64,000 nucleotides of DNA from a virus: the IMG/VR virus record IMGVR_UViG_3300032242_001941, positions 1-64,000 of that record; one strand, 5' to 3'. Shown piece by piece: positions 48,558-61,737 of the stretch. The notes beneath the pieces are model-generated. The model searched no databases. It was not told the origin of the DNA and saw only the letters and a list, made by a program, of their open reading frames with translations. The position numbers were made by a program, and so were the translations under genes. Numbering within the stretch: the stretch's first letter is position 1; each line of letters begins with the position of its first letter.

Positions 48558-48571
48558 ATCTGTTATAAATA
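48541..48571 (+). promoter_or_regulatory. Composite sigma70 / late promoter
   Basis: TTGACA-17-TATAAA overlapping TATAAATA. Confidence 0.7.
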
Positions 48572-50703: not shown

Positions 50704-50719
50704 TTTAGCGTTATAAATA

Positions 50720-50787
50720 ATAGTGTGGATGCCGATGGTCGGGTCCACACTATATGTCACTTGCTTAATTTAAAGGAGAAAACAATG
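50720..50787 (+). promoter_or_regulatory. ROSE-like RNA thermometer leader, copy 2, ahead of hsp20
   Basis: ATAGTGTGGA...TCCACACTAT hairpin, then CTTGCTT/AAGGAG; TATAAATA at 50712; ATG 50785. Confidence 0.75.
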
Positions 50788-51231
50788 ACAAGACTCACAA
50801 CTCTGGACCTTAGTCCATTCTATCGTAACTCAATCGGTGTAGACAAATTATTTGATCGTATGATGCATCAAATTGATACAGCGGCCGCATCAACTACAAA
50901 CTATCCACCTTACAACATTGTAAAAACTGGCGAGAACACCTACGAAATTCAAGTAGCCGTTGCTGGATTTACCGAAGGTGAAGTTACTGTAAACGTCAAT
51001 GAAGGTCAATTAATCATCTCAGGTGAAAAGCTGTCTACAGATTTGCCCGAAGGACACATATATGAACACCAAGGCATCAGTGCTCGTCGTTTTATACGCA
51101 CATTTACCTTGGCCGACTATGTAGAAGTAACCGATGCTCAAAGTCAGGATGGTATTCTGACTGTTAGCTTAGAGCGTCAAGTTCCTGAGGCACTTCTGCC
51201 GAAGACTATTGCGATCACTTACACAAAATAG
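50785..51231 (+). CDS. Small heat-shock protein (IbpA/Hsp20)
   Basis: NYPPYNI, AVAGF, HQGISARRF.RTFTLA, DGILTVSLER.VPE. Confidence 0.95.
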   Translation: MTRLTTLDLSPFYRNSIGVDKLFDRMMHQIDTAAASTTNYPPYNIVKTGENTYEIQVAVAGFTEGEVTVNVNEGQLIISGEKLSTDLPEGHIYEHQGISARRFIRTFTLADYVEVTDAQSQDGILTVSLERQVPEALLPKTIAITYTK

Positions 51232-51290
51232 TATAATATAGTAAATACAGTGGAGGGCACAGTGCTCTCCACTACAATAAAGGATTGGAT

Positions 51291-51599
51291 ATGTCACAAG
51301 CAGGAACTGTAACAAAAACACAAATTAATCAAGGTCTTGCCGAACCTCCTATGTTTAAAATTATCTATCTTAATGATAATGCCACACCAATGGAATTTGT
51401 AATTGATACGTTAATGGATTCATTTAATTATAGTTCAGAAACAGCTGAAAAAATTACCATGGACATTCACGAAGCCGGAAGTGCTGTGGTTGCTGTATTG
51501 CCTTATGAAATTGCCGAACAAAAAGGTATTGAAGTTACAGTGCAAGCCCGAAACAACAACTATCCTTTACAAGTCAAGCTAGAACCCGAAACAATTTAA
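51291..51599 (+). CDS. clpS: ClpS adaptor
   Basis: PPMFKIIYLNDNATPMEFV, IHEAGSAVV, YEIAEQK, YPL; own promoter 51209-51237. Confidence 0.92.
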   Translation: MSQAGTVTKTQINQGLAEPPMFKIIYLNDNATPMEFVIDTLMDSFNYSSETAEKITMDIHEAGSAVVAVLPYEIAEQKGIEVTVQARNNNYPLQVKLEPETI

Positions 51600-52387
51600 A
51601 AGTCAATTTCAATTCGACGAGGATAAAACACTCGCTGACACCAGTCGGTGTTGCCACGTCCCCTAGGATTGGAAATATATCTTATTCCTCCTAGGTTTTG
51701 ATCTACAGGCCTGTGATAGTGTCCAAAGCACCAGGTATGAATTTTTTGTTCAGTATCCTCGTCAATGGTGCGAGAAATATGACTGTTCCCCATGCCGTTA
51801 AATCTCCAGGTGTTGGCCAGATCAGGATCGTGTGCAATAACCCATGGTGCAGGAACGGTGTGACTAACCACAACAATGGCACCCACTTCCATATGGGTTT
51901 GTAATTTACGAACACTGTTCATCATATAAGATGCATCGTTGTAGGCCACGCCCATGATGTTTGTGGCGGTTGAATTATCAATACCAAAATGATCTTGTGT
52001 ATGTTGTATGCTAGCATCTACGCTTATGCTAGAATCAAAATCGTAGGTCCACCAAGCGTTGGTACCTAACAGAGCTACTCCGTTGACTATGATCACATTA
52101 TCCTGCATATAAACCACATTTTTTATAGATTTGATATCTTTAGCAAGGGCTCGATAACTAGCACCCAAATCGTCAAGATAATCTTTATGTTCTTCGTTAC
52201 CGTCGATATAAAAAACACCTCCAGGATAACATTGACCAAGGTGAGCCAGGGTGTCTAATAAACGTTGCCGGTCACGGGCTACATCACCGGCTACTACACA
52301 GTAAGGAGCCGTGGCTTGACTAGACCAATCAAAGTCGTTCCAAGTTTCAACGTGGAGGTCAGAAATTAAATCAAAAGCAAAAGTCAT
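51596..52387 (-). CDS. Calcineurin-like metallophosphoesterase
   Basis: SDLH, AGD, GNEEH, VSH.VP, FGHYH, NPRG. Confidence 0.88.
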   Translation of the reverse strand: MTFAFDLISDLHVETWNDFDWSSQATAPYCVVAGDVARDRQRLLDTLAHLGQCYPGGVFYIDGNEEHKDYLDDLGASYRALAKDIKSIKNVVYMQDNVIIVNGVALLGTNAWWTYDFDSSISVDASIQHTQDHFGIDNSTATNIMGVAYNDASYMMNSVRKLQTHMEVGAIVVVSHTVPAPWVIAHDPDLANTWRFNGMGNSHISRTIDEDTEQKIHTWCFGHYHRPVDQNLGGIRYISNPRGRGNTDWCQRVFYPRRIEIDF

Positions 52388-52411
52388 GATAACTATTTAC
52401 AAGGATCGCAT

Positions 52412-52762
52412 ATGAACATAATATTTAAAACCAATGCAACAAATATAGATGAAAAATATACAGTTTTAGACTTAGATACCTTTAGTTTACCTGACGGATC
52501 TTTACATACTGCCTGTTGTGTAGTTGAAAACATACCCGTTGCTGAATTTCCAATAATCACCCGGTTAAAAGAATTACACGTTAATCTTATAAGTAATTAT
52601 GGTAAACGCAATTGGAACTATTGCGAACAGGCCATTGAGCAACTTATGGGCAAATGGGGAGGCGAAGTAGACTCATTTTATCAAGAGTTAAACGCCCGTA
52701 TACAAAAACTTAAAACCCAAAATTTAGACGATTCCTGGAGCCCTGTTATACCAAAAGCCTAA
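52412..52762 (+). CDS. Stand-alone homologue of the cyclase C-terminal region
   Basis: Aligns by eye with the last ~120 aa of 57640..59691. Confidence 0.7.
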   Translation: MNIIFKTNATNIDEKYTVLDLDTFSLPDGSLHTACCVVENIPVAEFPIITRLKELHVNLISNYGKRNWNYCEQAIEQLMGKWGGEVDSFYQELNARIQKLKTQNLDDSWSPVIPKA

Positions 52763-52820
52763 ACAACAATCTTAAGATAAATACCCACATAATAATAAGA
52801 CTCTAAAAAAGGAGCTGGGT

Positions 52821-53102
52821 ATGAATGAAGTTTTTAAGATCATTGGAGATCTAGGATTTCCAGTAGCAGCCGCACTTGCAGGCGGTTATTTTGTATATCT
52901 CACAATCAAACTGTTATTAGCTGGCGTACTGTCAGCTGTTAAACAGATGGCTGGAATTATCACAGCCTTAGACAATCGTGTTAAAACTATGAATCACGAC
53001 GTTATCCGCATTGATACCGTTGTGAGTAATGCTTTGGGCTTACGCCCAGACGTAGAGCGCATAAGCCGCGCAGACGGTAAAAACGATGCAAGGAGAGACT
53101 GA
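52821..53102 (+). CDS. Small membrane protein, paralogue of 53665
   Basis: II.DLGFP TM then DNRVKTMNHDVIRID; AAGGAG SD. Confidence 0.8.
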   Translation: MNEVFKIIGDLGFPVAAALAGGYFVYLTIKLLLAGVLSAVKQMAGIITALDNRVKTMNHDVIRIDTVVSNALGLRPDVERISRADGKNDARRD

Positions 53103-53368
53103 TGTGGACTCGTGAAGAACGTCGTTGGGCAATAATGAATCGCAAAGAGTATATTGAACGTAATATGGCTATTTGTGATGAAGAAATTAAAACAAGAAAA
53201 CTTCAAAAGTTTCTAGGAGCTAAAACAATGGATTTTGATATTGAATATTTGGTCATACGCTTGCATGACATAGCCAGAGAAGTAGAACAACGTATTGGAT
53301 TTGGTGAATTAAGCAAAGACATTCGCAAGTGCGCTGATCGTTTAAGTAATATCAATAAGCCCGTATAA
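53102..53368 (+). CDS. Hypothetical protein (internal start at 53228 possible)
   Basis: Coupled ORF; AGGAG precedes the in-frame ATG at 53228. Confidence 0.55.
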   Translation: MWTREERRWAIMNRKEYIERNMAICDEEIKTRKLQKFLGAKTMDFDIEYLVIRLHDIAREVEQRIGFGELSKDIRKCADRLSNINKPV

Positions 53369-53562
53369 TGAAATACTACGACTACGAATGGGATTTAGAA
53401 CCTAATAGAATTTTATTAGATTCAGAACTTAACGTAAATGCACTAGGTTGGCAAACCGGCGACTATTTCAAAGTTTCTACTGTCAATGGTCGTGCTATGT
53501 TAGTCAAAGTAGATCCGTTAGAAAAATTCTTAAGAGATGGAGTTAGCAATGAAAAAACATAA
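53368..53562 (+). CDS. Hypothetical protein
   Basis: Coupled ORF; LGWQTGDYF resembles an AbrB-like beta pattern. Confidence 0.65.
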   Translation: MKYYDYEWDLEPNRILLDSELNVNALGWQTGDYFKVSTVNGRAMLVKVDPLEKFLRDGVSNEKT

Positions 53563-53665
53563 TCCATATAAATTACCACCGCATCAAATTTGGACTGATT
53601 GGGATCTAGCCAAGTTTGCTCTGATAGCATTTGTGGTCGGCATTGCGGTAGGAGCAATATTATAA
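53549..53665 (+). CDS. Small membrane protein (38 aa, not in ORF track)
   Basis: MKKHNPYKLPPHQIWTDWDLAKFALIAFVVGIAVGAIL; GGAG SD. Confidence 0.6.
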   Translation: MKKHNPYKLPPHQIWTDWDLAKFALIAFVVGIAVGAIL

Positions 53666-53949
53666 TGGGCGGCCTAGCAGAAATTATCAGCAAGTACGGA
53701 TTCCCAATGGTCATGGCAGTTGGCATGGGCTTTATCATACGCATGGTCTGGGAATGGTGTACCAAGGAAATCAAACCAGTTATCAATGATGCCAACGCAG
53801 TTCTTATTGGTCTTATTGATCGCATCCGTATGTTGGACAATGATTTGATTCGGTTGAATCAAAAAGTTAATACTGTGTTGCATCTACGTGGCAAAAGTAT
53901 TGATCACGAGCGTGTAGAAGCTGAACAACAGATCAACGAAAAATCGTAA
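53665..53949 (+). CDS. Small membrane protein, paralogue of 52821
   Basis: IISKYGFP TM then DRIRMLDNDLIRLN; AGGAG SD. Confidence 0.8.
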   Translation: MGGLAEIISKYGFPMVMAVGMGFIIRMVWEWCTKEIKPVINDANAVLIGLIDRIRMLDNDLIRLNQKVNTVLHLRGKSIDHERVEAEQQINEKS

Positions 53950-54002
53950 TACCGCCACTTAATATCTGTAAAAAACTATTAAATAATAGTAGGAGCTAGA
54001 GT

Positions 54003-54494
54003 ATGAAAAAAATAATAATAATAACTCTCTTAGCTTCTGCGCCTGCGTTTGTCACGGCTGCAGAACTACAACACTATTTTAGTAGCCCGGCCTTTAGCGG
54101 CGTTGGATACAGTAGCCATGTCTTGACTTTACAACAGCTAGAAACTCAACAAAAAGAAAAAAATAAATTGGCCGCAGATGCTATTGCAGCCAAAGCAGCC
54201 GCAGATGCTGCAAATACTCCACAGGCTAGATTTTTAGCCAACATTGAAAGTAGAGTCTATGCTCAACTAGCCAAACAAATTACCGATAGTTTGTTTGGTA
54301 CAGACGGTGTGCCTAGTTGTAAAGCAGTAAATCCTTACAGTCAGTGCGGATCTGTAAACATAGCGGGCAATGATATCACTTGGCGCCTGGGCGACCCAGC
54401 AAACGCCAGCGAAAAAGGCATGTTAGTAATCAACATTGCTGGTGCCACCGGCAACGTTCAAATGATGGTGCCATCTGGAACCTTTGCTTTTTAA
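54003..54494 (+). CDS. csgF: Curli assembly protein CsgF-like
   Basis: Signal peptide then ELQHYFSSPAFSG.G (cf. CsgF F.F.NP.FGG) and F..NIESR.YAQLAKQI...LFG. Confidence 0.75.
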   Translation: MKKIIIITLLASAPAFVTAAELQHYFSSPAFSGVGYSSHVLTLQQLETQQKEKNKLAADAIAAKAAADAANTPQARFLANIESRVYAQLAKQITDSLFGTDGVPSCKAVNPYSQCGSVNIAGNDITWRLGDPANASEKGMLVINIAGATGNVQMMVPSGTFAF

Positions 54495-54503
54495 GAAAAA
54501 TAT

Positions 54504-55319
54504 ATGAAACATACCGTAATTTCCTTGCTTGCAATTGCTTTATTAGGTGGATGTGCCATTGGCAGTGGTATCCGCGAACAGCTGACAAACAAGCAGTTTG
54601 ACGAACCAGTGATAGAAAAAAGTATTGTATTAGCACAGCCAAAAAATCAACTAGCACCACCGGCAGATGGACCTATTGCTGTGGCTGTGTACGGATTCCA
54701 AGATAAAACAGGGCAACGCAAAAGTCAACTTGCTGTGGCCAGTTTAAGCAGTGCTGTAACACAAGGCGGCGAAAGTTACTTGATTAAAGCCTTACAAGAT
54801 GTAGGCGATGGCCGCTGGTTCACTGTGGTAGAAAGAGTTGGGCTAGACAACCTAATCAAAGAACGACAAATGATTCGCCAGGGTCGCGAACAGTATCAAG
54901 GACGTGATGCTAAACCGTTACCGCCAATGGTATTTGCCGGAATGATTGTGGAAGGTGCTATTGTGGGCTATGATTCAAATACTCTTACAGGTGGCGCCGG
55001 TATGCGTATCTTTGGTATTGGCGGCCAAACACAGTATCAAAGTGATACAGTCACGATTAGTTTGAGAACAGTCAGTGTTCTTACTGGAGAAGTATTGACC
55101 ACAGTTACAGTTACAAAAACTGTGTTGAGTTACATGGATAAATTTACAGTATTGAGATTTATCAATGACGGAACTAACTCCTTAGAATCAGAAATAGGAG
55201 GTAGTATAAACGAAAGTATTAACCGAGCAACAAGCGCAGCCATACAAGCCGCAGTGGTTGATACGATTCGTGAAGGTGCTCGTAAAGGACACTGGAATTT
55301 TAAAGAAGTAAAAAAATAA
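54504..55319 (+). CDS. csgG: Curli secretion pore CsgG-like lipoprotein
   Basis: Lipobox LGGC, VAVYGFQDKTGQRK, SSAVTQG, WF.VVER.GLDNL.KERQ.IR, GYDSN..TGG.G. Confidence 0.92.
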   Translation: MKHTVISLLAIALLGGCAIGSGIREQLTNKQFDEPVIEKSIVLAQPKNQLAPPADGPIAVAVYGFQDKTGQRKSQLAVASLSSAVTQGGESYLIKALQDVGDGRWFTVVERVGLDNLIKERQMIRQGREQYQGRDAKPLPPMVFAGMIVEGAIVGYDSNTLTGGAGMRIFGIGGQTQYQSDTVTISLRTVSVLTGEVLTTVTVTKTVLSYMDKFTVLRFINDGTNSLESEIGGSINESINRATSAAIQAAVVDTIREGARKGHWNFKEVKK

Positions 55320-55369
55320 CAATAAAAAATAGGAGCTTAGATTGGGGATAACCCAACTTTGAACAAACA

Positions 55370-56167
55370 ATGAAAACAAACAAATTAAATACAGCCTATA
55401 CAATATTTGCTGTGTTGGCATTTGTTTCATTAAATGCAGCCGCACAAAATGCGGCCACTGGACCTAACAAGGTTTACCTGGAACAGATTGGTAGCACTAA
55501 TACCATCACAGTTCAACAGGTTGGCGGCACTAACAATGTTGGCGGCACCGGCGGCAATGTAACAGTAGATACCAATGGCGTAACTACTTTTACACCCGAT
55601 GCCCCTGGCAGTACTAACTATGCTACAATCACGGGTGCTAACAATGTGGTTGGACTTAGTCAGACTGGTAGTAACAACACGGCTCAGTACAATATCACTG
55701 GCAGTAACAATACCTATAACAGTACTGTGGCTGGCAATAACAATCAAACTCGTTTGATCATGGGTGGTGCCAATGCCACAGCCAATTACAATACTGTAAC
55801 AGAAACAGTTACTGGCAGTAATAACTTGATATTACAAAACGTTCAAGGCAGTAATGTGGTCAGTGGTATTGGAATTGTTGGCAGTACCAACCAAGTGACT
55901 ACTGATTTATTAAGTAACCGCGGAAGTTCTAATATACAAATCACTGGCAGTACCAACGTGATCAATGCTGAACAGACGGGCGGTGCTGGTGCCAATGGGC
56001 ACATATTGATTAATAATGTGATAGGCGACTATAACAGTATTACCACCCAGCAACAGGGTTCTATTGATACAACAATCGATCTTAAGACCACAGGTAGTTT
56101 CAATACCGTCACGGTACGGTCCAGCGACTCGGCCATTGTCAATTCAAGAACTGCTGTAGCAAGGTAA
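55370..56167 (+). CDS. Curlin-like repeat protein
   Basis: Signal peptide; repeated (Q/I)xGxxN strands; Asn/Thr/Gly-rich. Confidence 0.75.
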   Translation: MKTNKLNTAYTIFAVLAFVSLNAAAQNAATGPNKVYLEQIGSTNTITVQQVGGTNNVGGTGGNVTVDTNGVTTFTPDAPGSTNYATITGANNVVGLSQTGSNNTAQYNITGSNNTYNSTVAGNNNQTRLIMGGANATANYNTVTETVTGSNNLILQNVQGSNVVSGIGIVGSTNQVTTDLLSNRGSSNIQITGSTNVINAEQTGGAGANGHILINNVIGDYNSITTQQQGSIDTTIDLKTTGSFNTVTVRSSDSAIVNSRTAVAR

Positions 56168-56168
56168 T

Positions 56169-57269
56169 ATGCAGAAACTAATCACAGCCCTTTGCGTTAT
56201 GGTTGTATGTAACGCCTGGGCTGGCATTGGCACGGTTTCAGAACACAAAGGTACAGCCTGCGAGATCACACGAGACAAAAATAAATTATCTGGGCACAAA
56301 GATGCCATAGTTGAAAGTATGGACACATATACCACCGGTGCATGTGTCAGCAACATTACATTTAAAGATGACACAAAGGTTCGCATAACTGAGAACAGTC
56401 GCTTGCTTATTGATGATTTTGTATTTGATCCCAAGGCCAGCGATGCCGGCAAACTGGCTCTTAAAGTGAGCGCAGGCACTGTGCGCTATGCGTCGGGCCA
56501 GATTGCTAAAAATAGTCCACAAAAAGTAAATATTCAAACGCCAACAGCCACAGTGGCAGTTCGTGGTACTGATTTTACCATGACCGTTGACGAAGCTGGA
56601 CAAAGTCTGATAATGTTAATACCTAGTTGTAAAGATATCAACGAAGTTAAACAATATGAATTAGAAGAGAATAGATGCAAAGTTGGACGTATCGAAGTAA
56701 GCACTCTTGCTGGGTCAGTGGTCTTAGACCAAGCATTTGAAGCAACCTATGTTATGAGTGCTCTAATGGCACCAACTCCACCTATTGTTGTCAACACTGT
56801 TGAAAGTAAAATTAATAATAATCTTATTATTGTTAAACCTGTTGAAGTTCAACGAGCTATTAAAGAAGCAACAAAAACCAAACAAGAACAAGAACTTGAC
56901 GACATCGAAGCCGACGCGGCTCGACGACTAGCACAGGCTGTGGCCAAATCCGCCGAAGCCATTGAGGAAGCTCGTGTTTCCAAGTTTGTTGACCTTGCCA
57001 AACGGTCTGGGTGTAATTCTGCTACCAGTGTCTGTGTGATATGGGATAGACCGTCTGAAACAGAAATGATCAGTCGTGGACGTGGTATTGCATTCCGCCT
57101 AACAGAAAATGAGCATTATGCCGAAGTCAAGACACTTGGGTATGTATCCAACACCACAATTAACATTACACATAATGATATGCCATCATCGATCACTATC
57201 GGCGATGGCTCTCCTGGTGGAACTATTGTAACTATTAAACAAAACAATGGAGTATTAAAGTCTAAGTAG
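56169..57269 (+). CDS. Secreted FecR-domain protein
   Basis: Signal peptide; ITF.DDT.V.ITENS.L.IDDFVFDP, G.VRY.SG.IAK, TPTATVAVRGTDF. Confidence 0.85.
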   Translation: MQKLITALCVMVVCNAWAGIGTVSEHKGTACEITRDKNKLSGHKDAIVESMDTYTTGACVSNITFKDDTKVRITENSRLLIDDFVFDPKASDAGKLALKVSAGTVRYASGQIAKNSPQKVNIQTPTATVAVRGTDFTMTVDEAGQSLIMLIPSCKDINEVKQYELEENRCKVGRIEVSTLAGSVVLDQAFEATYVMSALMAPTPPIVVNTVESKINNNLIIVKPVEVQRAIKEATKTKQEQELDDIEADAARRLAQAVAKSAEAIEEARVSKFVDLAKRSGCNSATSVCVIWDRPSETEMISRGRGIAFRLTENEHYAEVKTLGYVSNTTINITHNDMPSSITIGDGSPGGTIVTIKQNNGVLKSK

Positions 57270-57364
57270 CCCAAGAGTGTATACGTAGTTTATTTTTTAA
57301 TGGGCAGTACTTAAATACTATGCAGGCATATTATAACTATAACAAGCCGGCTACGCAGGATTTT

Positions 57365-57393
57365 ATACCCACTTTACAGTGGGTATTTTTTTT
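57365..57393 (+). terminator. Rho-independent terminator
   Basis: ATACCCACT-TTAC-AGTGGGTAT+T7. Confidence 0.85.
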
Positions 57394-57422
57394 GTTAAAT
57401 ACTAGTCATACCGGAGATACAA

Positions 57423-57647
57423 ATGACTGACTTTTTTAAACCCGATCCAAGAATTACTGACCCTGCACTAAGAGATTTAGAAAAAAAAGTGCATTGGCTT
57501 ATGTCACAAATTTATGCCGGAAGCTGGGCGCAGATGTGTAGTGATGCAGGGCTCGATTGTAATACCGTGTATAATACATTTCCAGATAATTTTGATATAA
57601 ACAATATTAGACCAGACGCAGAAGAAGTTCAAAATAACGATGCTTAA
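57423..57647 (+). CDS. Hypothetical protein
   Basis: GGAG SD; overlaps the cyclase start. Confidence 0.65.
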   Translation: MTDFFKPDPRITDPALRDLEKKVHWLMSQIYAGSWAQMCSDAGLDCNTVYNTFPDNFDINNIRPDAEEVQNNDA

Positions 57648-59691
57648 AAAAATCTTAACAAGTCCGTGGACTGCTCTATTGACGCTGGCCTTAGTAGTGG
57701 GGTTACGGGTAGCAGACCCTACATTTGTTGAAAGCGTTCGTCTACGCTATTTTGATACGCTTATAACTAGTAAGCCTGCAGAAGTTATAGGTGTTAGTGT
57801 TGTAAACATTGATGAAAAGGCATTAGAAAAATATGGACAATTTCCTTTCTCCCGCGATCAGTACGCTGCCATCGTCCGGGATTTATATCGCCGCAATGCT
57901 GGTCTTGTTGTTTTTAACATCCTTACTCCTGATCGCGATCGCATGGGGCATGATGCAGAATACATCCAAGCCCTTCGCCAGTATCCAACAATTCTCCCTA
58001 ACATTGGGTCGCAAACTTCTCGTAATACTCCAAAAGCTCCTGGCTCAGTAGTCATAGGCCCATTTGGTCTAGATGCCTTTGTTACCTATCCTGGTATTAT
58101 TGCTAACCAACCTGCTATTGAAAATGCCGCAGTCGGTGTTGGTATTGTAAATACCTTGCCAGAAGTAGACGGTGTCGTTCGTCGCATGCCAATGGTAGTA
58201 GCATATGATGGCAAGTTGTACCCGAGCCTTGCTATGGAAACACTTCGAGTAGCTGGCGCCGACACCACTTTCCAAGTGAAGATCAACGAAACAGGCGTTG
58301 AGAAAATGCGCATTCCAAAGTTTGGAGCTATTACAACAGATTCATTGAGCCGTATTTGGGTTGACTGGTCACTGGTACCAAGTAAATATGGTTTAACGGA
58401 CTTGCCAAAAGATTTTGAAGGTGAAATTGTTATTGTTGGTGTATCAGCACAAGGACTTGCAAACCCTGTAGCTACAAGCCTTGGCGAAATGCTACCACAA
58501 GATTTACAAGCAAGTGTATTGGGTACTGTAATTGCCAATAGAGATCGTCCGGCAATTACTCGCCCAGATTGGGCCGATGGTGCAGAAATTGTATTTGTCG
58601 TTACGGCAGGTATTGTATTGTTATTTTTATCAAGGTGGGTTTATGTTGGACTTTGTTCATCTGTTTTTATACTCGGCGGGAGTATATTGCTGTCTCGTTG
58701 GGCTTATGGAAATTACGCTTGGCTTGTGGACGCGACTATTCCAGTCGTTGGCCTTGGCCTTGTGCTTCTTCATGCTTATGGTGTTAAGTTCGTAAGTGAG
58801 TTTTTACAAAAGCAAGCAATCAAGAAACAGTTTGCTGGCTACTGCTCCAAAGAAGTAGTGGAGCTATTGCAAAAAGATCCAGACCTAATCAAACGCGGTG
58901 TGCGCAAAGATGTCAGTGTCATGTTCTCAGACCTACGTGGCTTTACTCCTATCGGTGAACACTATGGTGATGATGTTGCTGGACTTGGAAAATATATGAA
59001 CGGTTATATGGATAGCATTAGTTGTCCTATTCTAGATAACAAAGGTATGATTATTAAGTATGTAGGTGATGCATCGATGCACATACACGGCGCTCCTATT
59101 GAAGATCCTAATCACGCACATACTATTGTTAAGGTAGGACTTGAGATGTTAGATGCTGTGGATGAATACACTAAACTAATGGAAGCACAAGGATTACCTC
59201 CTGCCGCAATGGGTTGGGGTTGTAACTCAGGTATTGGCTTTATTGGTGAAATGGGAAGCACAGATAGACACAGCTATGACATCTTAGGTGACATGGTTTC
59301 AACAGCTGCACGACTAGAAGCACGTTGTAAGGCCTATGGTGTGTTATGTATTATTGGTGCTGAAACATACAATAGAACTCGAGACGATTTCTTTTACTTG
59401 TTACTAGACAACTTGCAACCAAAAGGCAAAACAGTAGCAGACTTAATCTATACAGTATTACGTACTAAAGGTGTAGACTACAGTAAAGATAAGGCACAAC
59501 ACGAAAAAATGCATGACTTGTACCGAGCTAAAAAGTTTGATGAAGCCGCCGCTATGTGTACTAAAATGAAAGGCACCTTTGGCGGGCAGATGGACAAGTA
59601 CTACAAGATATGGATTGAACGTTGCGAGTTTATGAAAGAACAAAATTTACCAGATAACTGGAATGGCGAATTTGTGGCACACGAAAAATAG
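57640..59691 (+). CDS. CHASE2-domain class III adenylate/guanylate cyclase
   Basis: N-terminal TM, IDEKAL..YGQFPFSR and DGVVRR.P (CHASE2), three TMs, FSDLRGFT, KYVGDA, GEMGS..R..Y..LGD.V..AARLE. Confidence 0.93.
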   Translation: MLKKILTSPWTALLTLALVVGLRVADPTFVESVRLRYFDTLITSKPAEVIGVSVVNIDEKALEKYGQFPFSRDQYAAIVRDLYRRNAGLVVFNILTPDRDRMGHDAEYIQALRQYPTILPNIGSQTSRNTPKAPGSVVIGPFGLDAFVTYPGIIANQPAIENAAVGVGIVNTLPEVDGVVRRMPMVVAYDGKLYPSLAMETLRVAGADTTFQVKINETGVEKMRIPKFGAITTDSLSRIWVDWSLVPSKYGLTDLPKDFEGEIVIVGVSAQGLANPVATSLGEMLPQDLQASVLGTVIANRDRPAITRPDWADGAEIVFVVTAGIVLLFLSRWVYVGLCSSVFILGGSILLSRWAYGNYAWLVDATIPVVGLGLVLLHAYGVKFVSEFLQKQAIKKQFAGYCSKEVVELLQKDPDLIKRGVRKDVSVMFSDLRGFTPIGEHYGDDVAGLGKYMNGYMDSISCPILDNKGMIIKYVGDASMHIHGAPIEDPNHAHTIVKVGLEMLDAVDEYTKLMEAQGLPPAAMGWGCNSGIGFIGEMGSTDRHSYDILGDMVSTAARLEARCKAYGVLCIIGAETYNRTRDDFFYLLLDNLQPKGKTVADLIYTVLRTKGVDYSKDKAQHEKMHDLYRAKKFDEAAAMCTKMKGTFGGQMDKYYKIWIERCEFMKEQNLPDNWNGEFVAHEK

Positions 59692-59743: not shown

Positions 59744-60268
59744 ATGACCCGCACTATTCACAAATATCAATTACATCCATTTTGGGATGATGAATACAAA
59801 CATTTATCCTATGTTCATGAATCATTTAATGATCCTGAATTAACTAACACTTGGTTGGCCCAGGGTTATCCTGATCAATTTACCGGCGACATGTGTGATA
59901 TGCGCAGTCCACAACCCACGTGGAATCAACGATTTGTGGACATCTTTCGAGGGCAAGGGTGGCGAGACGTTGGTACCAGTTATTATCGAATGAATACTGG
60001 TACAGTATTACCTACTCACAGTGACTTATACCTAAAATACATCGAACTTTTTAACTTACGAGGTCGCGAACATACCATACGCCGTGCTATAATATTTTTA
60101 GAAGATTGGCAACCGGGCCACTATGCTGAATATCGAAATATTGCCTATGTGAATTGGCGAGCCGGTGCCACAATTGAATGGACATATGATACTCCACACA
60201 TGGCAGCTAATTTAGGATTAACTCCAAGATACACTTTACAAATAACAGGACACATAGATGGTCAATAG
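59744..60268 (+). CDS. 2OG-Fe(II) oxygenase/cupin-like protein
   Basis: LPTHSD (HxD), distal PHMAAN, RYTLQITG. Confidence 0.7.
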   Translation: MTRTIHKYQLHPFWDDEYKHLSYVHESFNDPELTNTWLAQGYPDQFTGDMCDMRSPQPTWNQRFVDIFRGQGWRDVGTSYYRMNTGTVLPTHSDLYLKYIELFNLRGREHTIRRAIIFLEDWQPGHYAEYRNIAYVNWRAGATIEWTYDTPHMAANLGLTPRYTLQITGHIDGQ

Positions 60269-61181
60269 TCGCAATGAATGGGATCCGTTAGAAGCTATTA
60301 TTGTAGGTAGTGCTACCAATGCTAATTGGCCAATGACTGATCCAGTGTTTGCTGAAGAAGCTAGGAATAGCCTGTGGACCAAAACACCGGCACCCGGTGG
60401 CCCAGTGCCGCAGTTTATCGTTGATGAAGCTAATCGCGAATTAGACATCTTGTCAGAAACCCTAGTTCGATATGGCGCTACAGTTTATCGTCCTCGACCA
60501 ATGGATTTTGTTAAACGCCAAGGCATGTACAACTATTGTCCAAGAGATCGACTACTAGTGGCCGGCGATACTGTAGTTGACTGCAACATGATGTATCCGT
60601 GTCGCAATCAGGAAATTGAAAATTATTATAGATTACTTGCAGATGCTTGTAACACATATACTATGCCTAGAGACCAAGATATGACCCTGGATGCCGCAAA
60701 CATTTGTCGACTTGGAGATACTTGGTTATTTTTACAATCAGCATCGGGTAGTATTTCTGCGTACTATTGGTTAAAGTCAAAATTCCCTAAAATTACAATT
60801 GAGCTGTGTAACTTTTACGCAGGTGTCCATATTGATTCTACTATTACTCCTTTGCGTGAAGGACTAGTCATGTTAAATGCCGGACGTGTTACTGAAGATA
60901 ACTGTCCACAAGCATTTCAAGATTGGGAAAAAATTTGGGTCACAGAAAACATGATTGTAGCACAAGACTTTTATCAATATCCTTATGCGTCAAAATGGAT
61001 AGCTATGAATATGTTGGTCTTGGATCCAGAAACTGTAATCATAGATGCCGCACAAACAGAGCTAATTACTATACTGAAGTCCCGAGGAATTGATTCAATT
61101 CCCTTGACACTAAGCCATAGTAGAACACTAGGCGGCGGATTTCATTGTGTAACCTTGGATACTCGTAGACGTCATGCATAA
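60258..61181 (+). CDS. Amidinotransferase (glycine / inosamine-phosphate amidinotransferase family)
   Basis: NEWDPLE.IIVG, CPRD, DAAN, HID, LGGGFHCVTLD (Cys-His-Asp triad). Confidence 0.9.
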   Translation: MVNSRNEWDPLEAIIVGSATNANWPMTDPVFAEEARNSLWTKTPAPGGPVPQFIVDEANRELDILSETLVRYGATVYRPRPMDFVKRQGMYNYCPRDRLLVAGDTVVDCNMMYPCRNQEIENYYRLLADACNTYTMPRDQDMTLDAANICRLGDTWLFLQSASGSISAYYWLKSKFPKITIELCNFYAGVHIDSTITPLREGLVMLNAGRVTEDNCPQAFQDWEKIWVTENMIVAQDFYQYPYASKWIAMNMLVLDPETVIIDAAQTELITILKSRGIDSIPLTLSHSRTLGGGFHCVTLDTRRRHA

Positions 61182-61737
61182 AATAAAAGAAAAAATTAGT
61201 TGGGTATTATCAGATTCTGTAGTATTAGATCCTACACAGGATATCGAAGAACTTAAACGAGTTGGTGCATTTTGGGGAAGTTGGCGCACCTGGAGAGCCT
61301 GTCAAACAGACAACGTAATCTGTCACGATCAGATCAAGGCCGACGAGTTGATACAACGAGAATTTCAAAAGTCCTGTAATTTTTACATACCAGAATCGGT
61401 TAATGCTAGTATTAATCGACCCGAGGGTGTAAAAGTGTATGCTGGAGAATTTGTACATAATGTAATAAAGCAAGAAGAAATTGTGGCCATGCATTTGGCT
61501 GCAACCACCAGTGATATTGTTATAATGCTAGGATGGGATCTTACTACACTTGAGGCCAATGCAGATCGTTTGCAGGCCAATCAAGCACAGCATCATCGTA
61601 ATTTGGTGCAACAGGCCTTTATAACTTACAACCAGATTCAATGGGTCATAGTAGATCATGCAGGTCCAATTGATCCAAATTTAACTGATTTGGACAATGT
61701 AGTCACCGATACTTTGGCTACAGTTTTACACTTATAA
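61174..61737 (+). CDS. Hypothetical protein
   Basis: Coupled ORF, 187 aa. Confidence 0.7.
   Translation: MHKIKEKISWVLSDSVVLDPTQDIEELKRVGAFWGSWRTWRACQTDNVICHDQIKADELIQREFQKSCNFYIPESVNASINRPEGVKVYAGEFVHNVIKQEEIVAMHLAATTSDIVIMLGWDLTTLEANADRLQANQAQHHRNLVQQAFITYNQIQWVIVDHAGPIDPNLTDLDNVVTDTLATVLHL

Follow-up and report, generated by a model that had tools for sequence, protein, structure and literature searches.

Why should a bacteriophage carry the genes of an amyloid-exporting secretion system beside those of an envelope sensor that makes a cyclic nucleotide, and would the combination serve to place fibres on the surface of an infected cell, to pass a signal across its envelope, or to do something else? 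The question is raised by positions 51596–59691 of the window analysed here, a stretch of 64,000 nucleotides forming the first 64 kb of the 111.6-kb IMG/VR virus record IMGVR_UViG_3300032242_001941. An earlier, sequence-only reading had listed there a metallophosphoesterase, a free-standing copy of a cyclase C-terminus, two paralogous small transmembrane (TM) proteins, CsgF-like, CsgG-like, curlin-like and FecR-domain genes, and a CHASE2 class III cyclase, and domain, profile and fold matches bear out every gene on that list. On balance, and with a little more confidence than doubt, we read the block as a jumbo-phage version of the published viral type VIII secretion system (T8SS) region, in which fibre export would be combined with an envelope sensor making cyclic AMP (cAMP). 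The core of the block is already in the literature; what is new here is its occurrence in a jumbo-phage lineage, in a rearranged form and with no second curlin.

Under the name of viral T8SS region, the whole set has been described from pelagiphages of the podovirus and myovirus types, comprising one or two 'histidine kinases', CsgF, CsgG, CsgA/B, FecR, a second CsgA/B and an adenylate cyclase, alphaproteobacterial in origin and expressed in marine metatranscriptomes (Wittmers et al. 2022, PMC9599517); CHASE2 goes unmentioned in that paper, as does any phosphodiesterase. CsgF and CsgG are the only members treated by Zaragoza-Solas et al. 2020 (PMC7029224) and by Buchholz et al. 2022 (PMC9004378), and our literature search found no paper on a viral curli block in jumbo phages. 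The sequence-only reading was right that csgF and csgG are known from phages; it had not recognized that the block as a whole, FecR and cyclase included, was already published. The window holds every gene of the Wittmers et al. set, in order, except the second CsgA/B, and the block is annotated in the same gene order in HTVC008M (gp011–gp019) and Melnitz (gp97–gp104). Identity to Melnitz is 45–49% for CsgG, 43% for the cyclase, 45% for FecR, and 54% and 47% for two small membrane proteins, here called A and B, whose published name is 'histidine kinases'. Unlike the pelagiphage block, that of the window belongs to a jumbo phage and not to a Kyanoviridae-type or podovirus pelagiphage, its A and B genes are split by two small open reading frames (ORFs), and it has an extra copy of the cyclase tail.

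The phage origin of the region is seen in the terminase, virion protein, helicase, ribonucleotide reductase and ligase genes of the same window. The terminase is nearest to those of the jumbo phages PA5oct (~52% identity), Phosso (48.5%) and Atu_ph07 (52.7%), and the record is rated 32% complete, which corresponds to a genome of ~350 kb; the carrier is predicted to be an uncultured jumbo phage of about that size, resembling PA5oct and Atu_ph07. Its relatives, the jumbo clade, are represented by 80 IMG/VR loci with a CsgG 67–76% identical to that of the window, on contigs of up to 372 kb, and for one 372-kb relative terminal repeats are present and completeness is rated at 100%. The pelagimyophage clade is represented by a second set of 80 loci, retrieved with the CsgG of HTVC008M. 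Isolates are covered by 50,697 isolate phage records, and bacterial gene context was taken from a plasmid and chromid collection, which is a biased sample.

Three adjoining genes mark the block as a predicted type VIII secretion system: a CsgG channel, the adjacent CsgF and a secreted curlin-repeat subunit. The gene for the outer-membrane lipoprotein channel (54504–55319, + strand, as are all features below unless indicated) encodes a full-length CsgG (PF03783, 166 bits; NF011731, 167 bits) that matches E. coli CsgG structures at E 2e-45 and has an L-G-G-C lipobox with Cys17. The CsgF-like protein (54003–54494) has a signal peptide and matches PF10614 at 31 bits (cut-off 25.8), finds no PDB match by sequence, and is encoded immediately before csgG in 80 of 80 jumbo-clade loci. 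The third gene (55370–56167) encodes a fibre subunit of the CsgA-like, curlin-repeat type, which has a signal peptide, is rich in Asn, Gly and Thr and shows a repeat period of 11/22 residues. Taken alone, this sequence gives no match in Pfam, Curlin_rpt included; a profile of 38 orthologues matches a single structure in the PDB, that of CsgA (8c50, E 1.5e-7), and the orthologues do reach Curlin_rpt, the Melnitz protein scoring 26 bits, above the cut-off. The AlphaFold2 (AF2) model is a two-sheet beta-solenoid (predicted local distance difference test, pLDDT, 82.7; predicted template modelling score 0.81) whose best VIA-align match is again 8c50 (Z 19.7, 205 residues, root-mean-square deviation, rmsd, 8.8; next row Z 15.7). 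Foldseek with the same model gave no significant PDB match (best E 0.25), and VIA-align alone found CsgA.

The curlin gene recurs in 76 of the 80 jumbo-clade loci, the other four ending too soon, and nearly all jumbo relatives encode a second secreted curlin-repeat protein, possibly a nucleator or a cargo carried on the fibre, its gene starting at the FecR stop codon. Because a CsgA-like fibre subunit is present, and a second curlin in most relatives, the module would be a system of secretion and assembly and not only a pore; the earlier description of it as 'less like biofilm curli' is at odds with these same genes.

Two further observations concern these proteins. At residues ~70–85 of the window's CsgG, Gln, Ser and Leu align opposite the constriction loop of E. 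coli CsgG, whose constriction residues we take to be Tyr, Asn and Phe, and the loop is one residue longer here. The second curlin-repeat proteins of the relatives (for example L003:13321-15003, L042:13340-14995 and L010:12704-13819) are secreted and 370–640 aa long, with an N-terminal part that is not curlin-like and later repeats that are 38–57% identical to the window curlin over short stretches.

The other half of the block begins with a gene (56169–57269) for a secreted protein of FecR/PupR fold (PF04773, 42.5 bits). A signal peptide (residues 1–19) is followed by the FecR domain, a long helix and a small C-terminal beta domain (AF2 pLDDT 76.5), and residues 49–219 resemble the cell-surface signalling domain of PupR (VIA-align against 6ovm, Z 14.4, rmsd 2.9, 135 residues; Foldseek against the PupR entry 6ovk, E 3.8e-5). 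The protein is conserved over its full length, at 54–65% identity, in 37 relatives, and its gene is present in 72 of 80 jumbo-clade loci, every miss being a locus that ends too soon. In comparison with the FecR/PupR anti-sigma regulators, the phage protein matches only the periplasmic part of PupR: its signal peptide leads directly into the FecR domain, with neither a cytoplasmic anti-sigma domain nor a membrane anchor, and domain searches of the region found no extracytoplasmic function (ECF) sigma factor and no TonB-dependent transducer. Since all four are missing, it is probably not an iron regulator, and the published label 'iron regulator FecR' appears to need correction to that of an exported partner of a CHASE2 sensor. 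The C-terminal beta domain gave no fold match, the match list being filled by the long helix. A curlin repeat was considered for this C-terminus and could not be established; the end motif, IGDGSPGGN.V.IKQN, resembles a curlin strand, but hhalign aligned 14 columns at 9% probability and no member of the family matches Curlin_rpt.

The last gene of the block (57640–59691) encodes the CHASE2 class III adenylate cyclase, with matches to PF05226 (CHASE2; 124.6 bits, residues 15–325) and PF00211 (Guanylate_cyc; 51.1 bits). Its predicted topology, in which a TM segment, a periplasmic CHASE2 domain, three TM segments, the catalytic domain and a helical tail succeed one another (hydrophobic residues 12–30 and 311–385), is standard for CHASE2 sensors. 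The metal-binding residues Asp431 and Asp477, the substrate residue Lys473 and the transition-state residue Arg558 are all kept. Two other positions, Asp547 and Ser554, set the window cyclase apart from 134 of 140 aligned representatives: at 547, where class III cyclases use Asp or Ser/Thr beside the substrate Lys, the other representatives have Ser or Thr, and at 554, four residues before the Arg, 131 of the 140 have the transition-state Asn. Of 120 close homologues, 119 keep this pair unchanged, and Melnitz shares it; it is missing from the cyclases of HTVC008M and a Ruegeria, which have Ser/Thr and Asn, and is a predicted active-site signature of a clade made up of jumbo phages and Melnitz. 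In mammalian cyclases, replacement of Asn by Ser reduces turnover. Such constancy of the catalytic motifs, in 119 of the 120, makes it likely that the cyclase is under selection. Public metagenome protein sets contain more than 7,800 cluster representatives (90% identity clusters) of the cyclase at E <= 1e-20. Two contigs of 3–8 kb (L083 and L084), binned to Chitinophagaceae and Bifidobacterium metagenome-assembled genomes, encode a cyclase 70–80% identical to that of the window and are most likely phage contigs that were mis-binned.

Whether these genes belong together can be judged from their neighbourhoods, the check proposed with the sequence-only reading. Counting only jumbo-clade loci with at least 9 kb of downstream sequence (n=43), the cyclase accompanies the curli genes in 42 of 43, and among pelagimyophage-clade loci that extend far enough FecR and the cyclase are each present in 15 of 15. 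Cyclase and curli genes co-assort in both of these distant clades, but no such association holds for the phosphoesterase, so that the survey upheld one part of the proposed grouping and not the other. It helps to separate a constant core, consisting of A, B, CsgF, CsgG, curlin, FecR and cyclase, from the accessories, namely the phosphoesterase, the tail copy and the second curlin. The claim of one conserved, envelope-located module is supported by the synteny of the gene set across both clades.

Proteins A (52821–53102; phrog_18771, E 8e-32) and B (53665–53949; phrog_18771, E 4e-26) are small bitopic membrane proteins whose shared family confirms that they are paralogues. The hydrophobic stretch of A spans residues 11–50, an N-terminal hydrophobic segment being followed by a coiled coil. 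For B, the family match covers residues 27–110 of a program-made ORF beginning at 53599 (TTG), and the ATG at 53665, which fits the family, is most likely the true start. Two ORFs lie between them, one of 88 aa (53102–53368) that was probably inserted and has a homologue in only 2–3 related loci, and one of 64 aa (53368–53562) that is a conserved companion, 24 related loci having a homologue of it at the same place between A and B; library searches gave no family match for either. The usual place of A, the 64-aa ORF and B in the jumbo relatives is downstream of the cyclase, on the opposite strand; the window has them inverted and upstream of csgF, together with the phosphoesterase. A or B is also upstream of csgF in Melnitz, in HTVC008M and in every pelagimyophage-type locus that extends far enough upstream (69 of 69).

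The published naming of A and B as histidine kinases was tried and rejected, since 25 members of the family, 84–149 aa in length, show no kinase domain, whether HisKA or HATPase_c, even at E up to 10; the label appears to need correction to that of small bitopic membrane proteins lacking such a domain. Twelve of the 25 have weak matches to YvrJ, and the family profile found nothing significant in the PDB. Within the isolate records the family of protein A is confined to the six true phage records with CsgG (four Melnitz strains and two of HTVC008M); a seventh CsgG match, an unannotated 1.5-kb Salmonella record, was taken as host DNA.

The phosphoesterase (51596–52387, − strand; phrog_1649, E 2e-23) shows D-x-H, GD and GHxH motifs. 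Its score for Metallophos_2 (18.6 bits) is below the cut-off of 27 and that for TIGR03729 (49.5 bits) far below the cut-off of 148, it has no sequence match in the PDB, and the families it does match are generic phosphoesterases, none of them specific for cyclic nucleotide monophosphates (cNMPs). It lies near the module, beside A, in 9 of 80 jumbo-clade loci, and in 0 of 80 pelagimyophage-type loci; among whole related genomes it is near the module in G003 and G007, 37 kb off in G005 and absent from G004, which is 100% complete. The role of circuit hydrolase that it had been given earlier is not supported by this distribution. The protein encoded at 52412–52762 (116 aa) is indeed a copy of the cyclase C-terminus, as had been claimed: its residues 9–113 align with cyclase residues ~577–680 (hhalign probability 98.1%, E 1e-13, 100 columns; BLASTP E 4e-7), which are the last ~105 of the cyclase and comprise the final strands of the catalytic domain and the helical tail. 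A free-standing tail copy occurs in only 7 of 80 jumbo loci, directly upstream of csgF, and in 0 of 80 pelagimyophage-type loci, and in G003, G004 and G007 the sole match to it is the cyclase's own tail. Phosphoesterase and tail copy are lineage-specific accessories and not part of the core.

The best plasmid and chromid matches of the phage FecR protein are alphaproteobacterial FecR-domain proteins, and in Ruegeria, Shinella and Paracoccus a FecR-domain gene lies immediately upstream of an adenylate cyclase gene in the same orientation. CHASE2 was confirmed in the Ruegeria cyclase, and the matches in Shinella and Paracoccus cover 93–96% of the length of the phage CHASE2 cyclase; judged by coordinates, a CHASE2-cyclase match lies within ~2 kb of at least 11 of the 30 listed bacterial FecR matches. 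By analogy with these pairs, adjacent and in the same order as in the phage, the FecR protein and CHASE2 cyclase look like a sensor pair acting from periplasm to cytoplasm, and the periplasmic relay proposed in the earlier reading is plausible. Related pairings have been published for Sinorhizobium meliloti, where the FecR-domain gene smc02177 is paired with cyaD1 (PMC5498481), and for the BiofilmReg operon of Burkholderia and Pseudomonas, where a FecR-domain gene accompanies a CHASE2 histidine kinase (PMC5192318).

Bacterial and phage pairs have in common an exported FecR-domain protein and, in the alphaproteobacterial cyclase, the same helical C-terminal tail. They differ in that the bacterial pairs have no adjoining T8SS genes, csgG being found in none of the bacterial FecR-CHASE2 loci, and in that some have genes for cNMP-binding effectors nearby; the phage and bacterial FecR proteins align in the FecR domain alone, and most phages, unlike the bacteria, have a curlin-repeat gene between FecR and cyclase. 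Conversely, the alphaproteobacterial T8SS operons (for example Sphingomonas sp. NY01 p2 and Azospirillum sp. TSA2s p2) share with the window the order csgF, csgG, curlin genes and, like it, lack CsgE, CsgC and CsgD, but have no FecR protein, CHASE2 cyclase or A/B nearby; the plasmid CsgG genes closest to that of the phage (47–53% identity) belong to csgF-csgG-curlin operons, with FecR and cyclase again not nearby. Because FecR-CHASE2 pairs occur without T8SS genes, and T8SS operons without the pair, the phage block looks like a join of two alphaproteobacterial units, and its occurrence in so distant a lineage of jumbo phages suggests that it has moved between phage families.

Upstream of the pairs on the Shinella (L090) and Paracoccus (L091) plasmids lies a TPR or hypothetical gene, and downstream a DUF3307 gene. 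The cNMP-binding effectors near them are a patatin phospholipase and a cNMP-binding protein whose gene adjoins an NHLP bacteriocin export system.

If the block does work as a fibre exporter with an envelope sensor, the Sec and Lol pathways of the host would place CsgG and CsgF in the outer membrane of the infected cell, where curlin would be secreted and polymerize into amyloid fibres that alter the cell surface, with exclusion of other phages or aggregation of cells as possible effects. The FecR-fold protein and the CHASE2 domain would form a periplasmic sensor pair, taken over from Alphaproteobacteria, that answers a cue from the envelope, perhaps how curlin export is proceeding, by making cAMP; the tail copy may be a modulator of this cyclase. 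Since no cNMP-binding protein can be recognized among the phage's own, the cAMP would have to be read by host receptors. The infected cell would thereby gain a secretion system and a second-messenger enzyme, and the published SAR11 and OM43 hosts have no curli system of their own; phage-borne curli systems are widespread in aquatic viromes.

Several points weigh against fibre export coupled to cAMP synthesis. The 111-kb record, ~32% of the genome, lacks the second curlin-repeat gene, which leaves one curlin and no separate CsgB-like nucleator, and no ORF of the region matches the CsgE, CsgC or CsgD families. The transition-state Asn of class III cyclases is replaced by Ser554, so that activity and product are putative, and the cNMP-binding domain PF00027 is found neither in the 111-kb record nor in five related jumbo genomes. 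Contact between the FecR protein and CsgG, curlin or CHASE2 is putative, and the FecR C-terminus bears a weak motif likeness to curlin (hhalign 9%).

The sequence-only reading had preferred a pure trans-envelope circuit, in which the CsgG/CsgF pore admits or senses a signal that passes from FecR through CHASE2 to cAMP, the phosphoesterase resets the system, and lysis or defence is tuned on superinfection or host density. The PupR cell-surface-signalling fold of the FecR domain and the bacterial FecR-CHASE2 pairing agree with such a circuit, as does the position of the phosphoesterase gene, adjoining the A/B block in the window and nine relatives; CHASE2 cyclases of S. meliloti, moreover, need the outer-membrane protein NsrA for their external signal. 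We nevertheless regard it as unlikely, given that curlin fibre genes are constant members of the block, usually in two copies, and that the phosphoesterase has no cNMP-specific family match, is absent or distant in whole related genomes and is missing from 80 of 80 pelagimyophage-type loci. A phage-encoded read-out of the nucleotide, which the circuit had also implied, was sought in the record and the five related jumbo genomes, and no cNMP-binding effector came to light. A narrower proposal of our own, which we rate as more speculative again, combines sensing with export: FecR and cyclase would monitor the phage's own curlin export, through unpolymerized periplasmic subunit or the state of CsgG, and report it by cyclic nucleotide, the jumbo/Melnitz pocket having been rebuilt (Asp547, Ser554) with a change of kinetics or product, and the tail copy acting in trans on the cyclase dimer in a few phages.

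Two explanations built on the channel itself seem to us much harder to sustain. Buchholz et al. 2022 proposed for Melnitz (PMC9004378) that lysis is timed by CsgG(F) as a gated secretin/pinholin-like channel that depolarizes or permeabilizes the envelope, and A and B could then be holin/antiholin-like, since they are holin-like in build, short and with an N-terminal TM segment and coiled coil. A CsgG in the outer membrane cannot, however, depolarize the inner membrane, A and B match no holin family and have only the weak matches to YvrJ, the block is without a lysin gene, and the curlin, FecR and cyclase genes are left unexplained; a lysis timer is accordingly a very doubtful reading. Slightly less credible still is an uptake pore, raised in PMC7029224 and PMC9599517, through which a channel without the CsgE gate would let nutrients or cofactors into the infected cell. 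The region does lack CsgE among its ORFs, and smaller residues stand opposite the constriction loop of E. coli CsgG (on the constriction positions assumed above), but CsgF, which caps the channel, and curlin are always present, and alphaproteobacterial T8SS operons also lack CsgE and yet carry curlins.

Some features of the region lie outside these arguments. A terminator-like hairpin (57365–57396; 9-bp stem and T run, by consensus match only) separates the FecR gene from the cyclase unit, at the place where relatives have the second curlin-repeat gene. The 74-aa ORF that overlaps the cyclase start (57423–57647) has no match in the 80 related loci or in any family library. Directly after the cyclase, at 59744–61737, are three overlapping genes with no Pfam match at E <= 0.1; since just one of them has a counterpart close to the module, and that in no more than one related locus, they are placed outside the block. 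The region shows no enrichment of sigma-70-like sites, and the T4-type late promoter TATAAATA occurs nowhere within the module and three times in the window, against ~4.5 expected; two of these three exact copies of the consensus, at 48564–48571 and 50712–50719, stand just 5' of the genes for the chaperonin and Hsp20. In 47–49 of 80 jumbo loci, as in the window (50725–51599), hsp20 and clpS are found upstream of the curli block, ~2–5 kb before csgG, and the chaperone/protease cluster and the amyloid-export block are syntenic neighbours.

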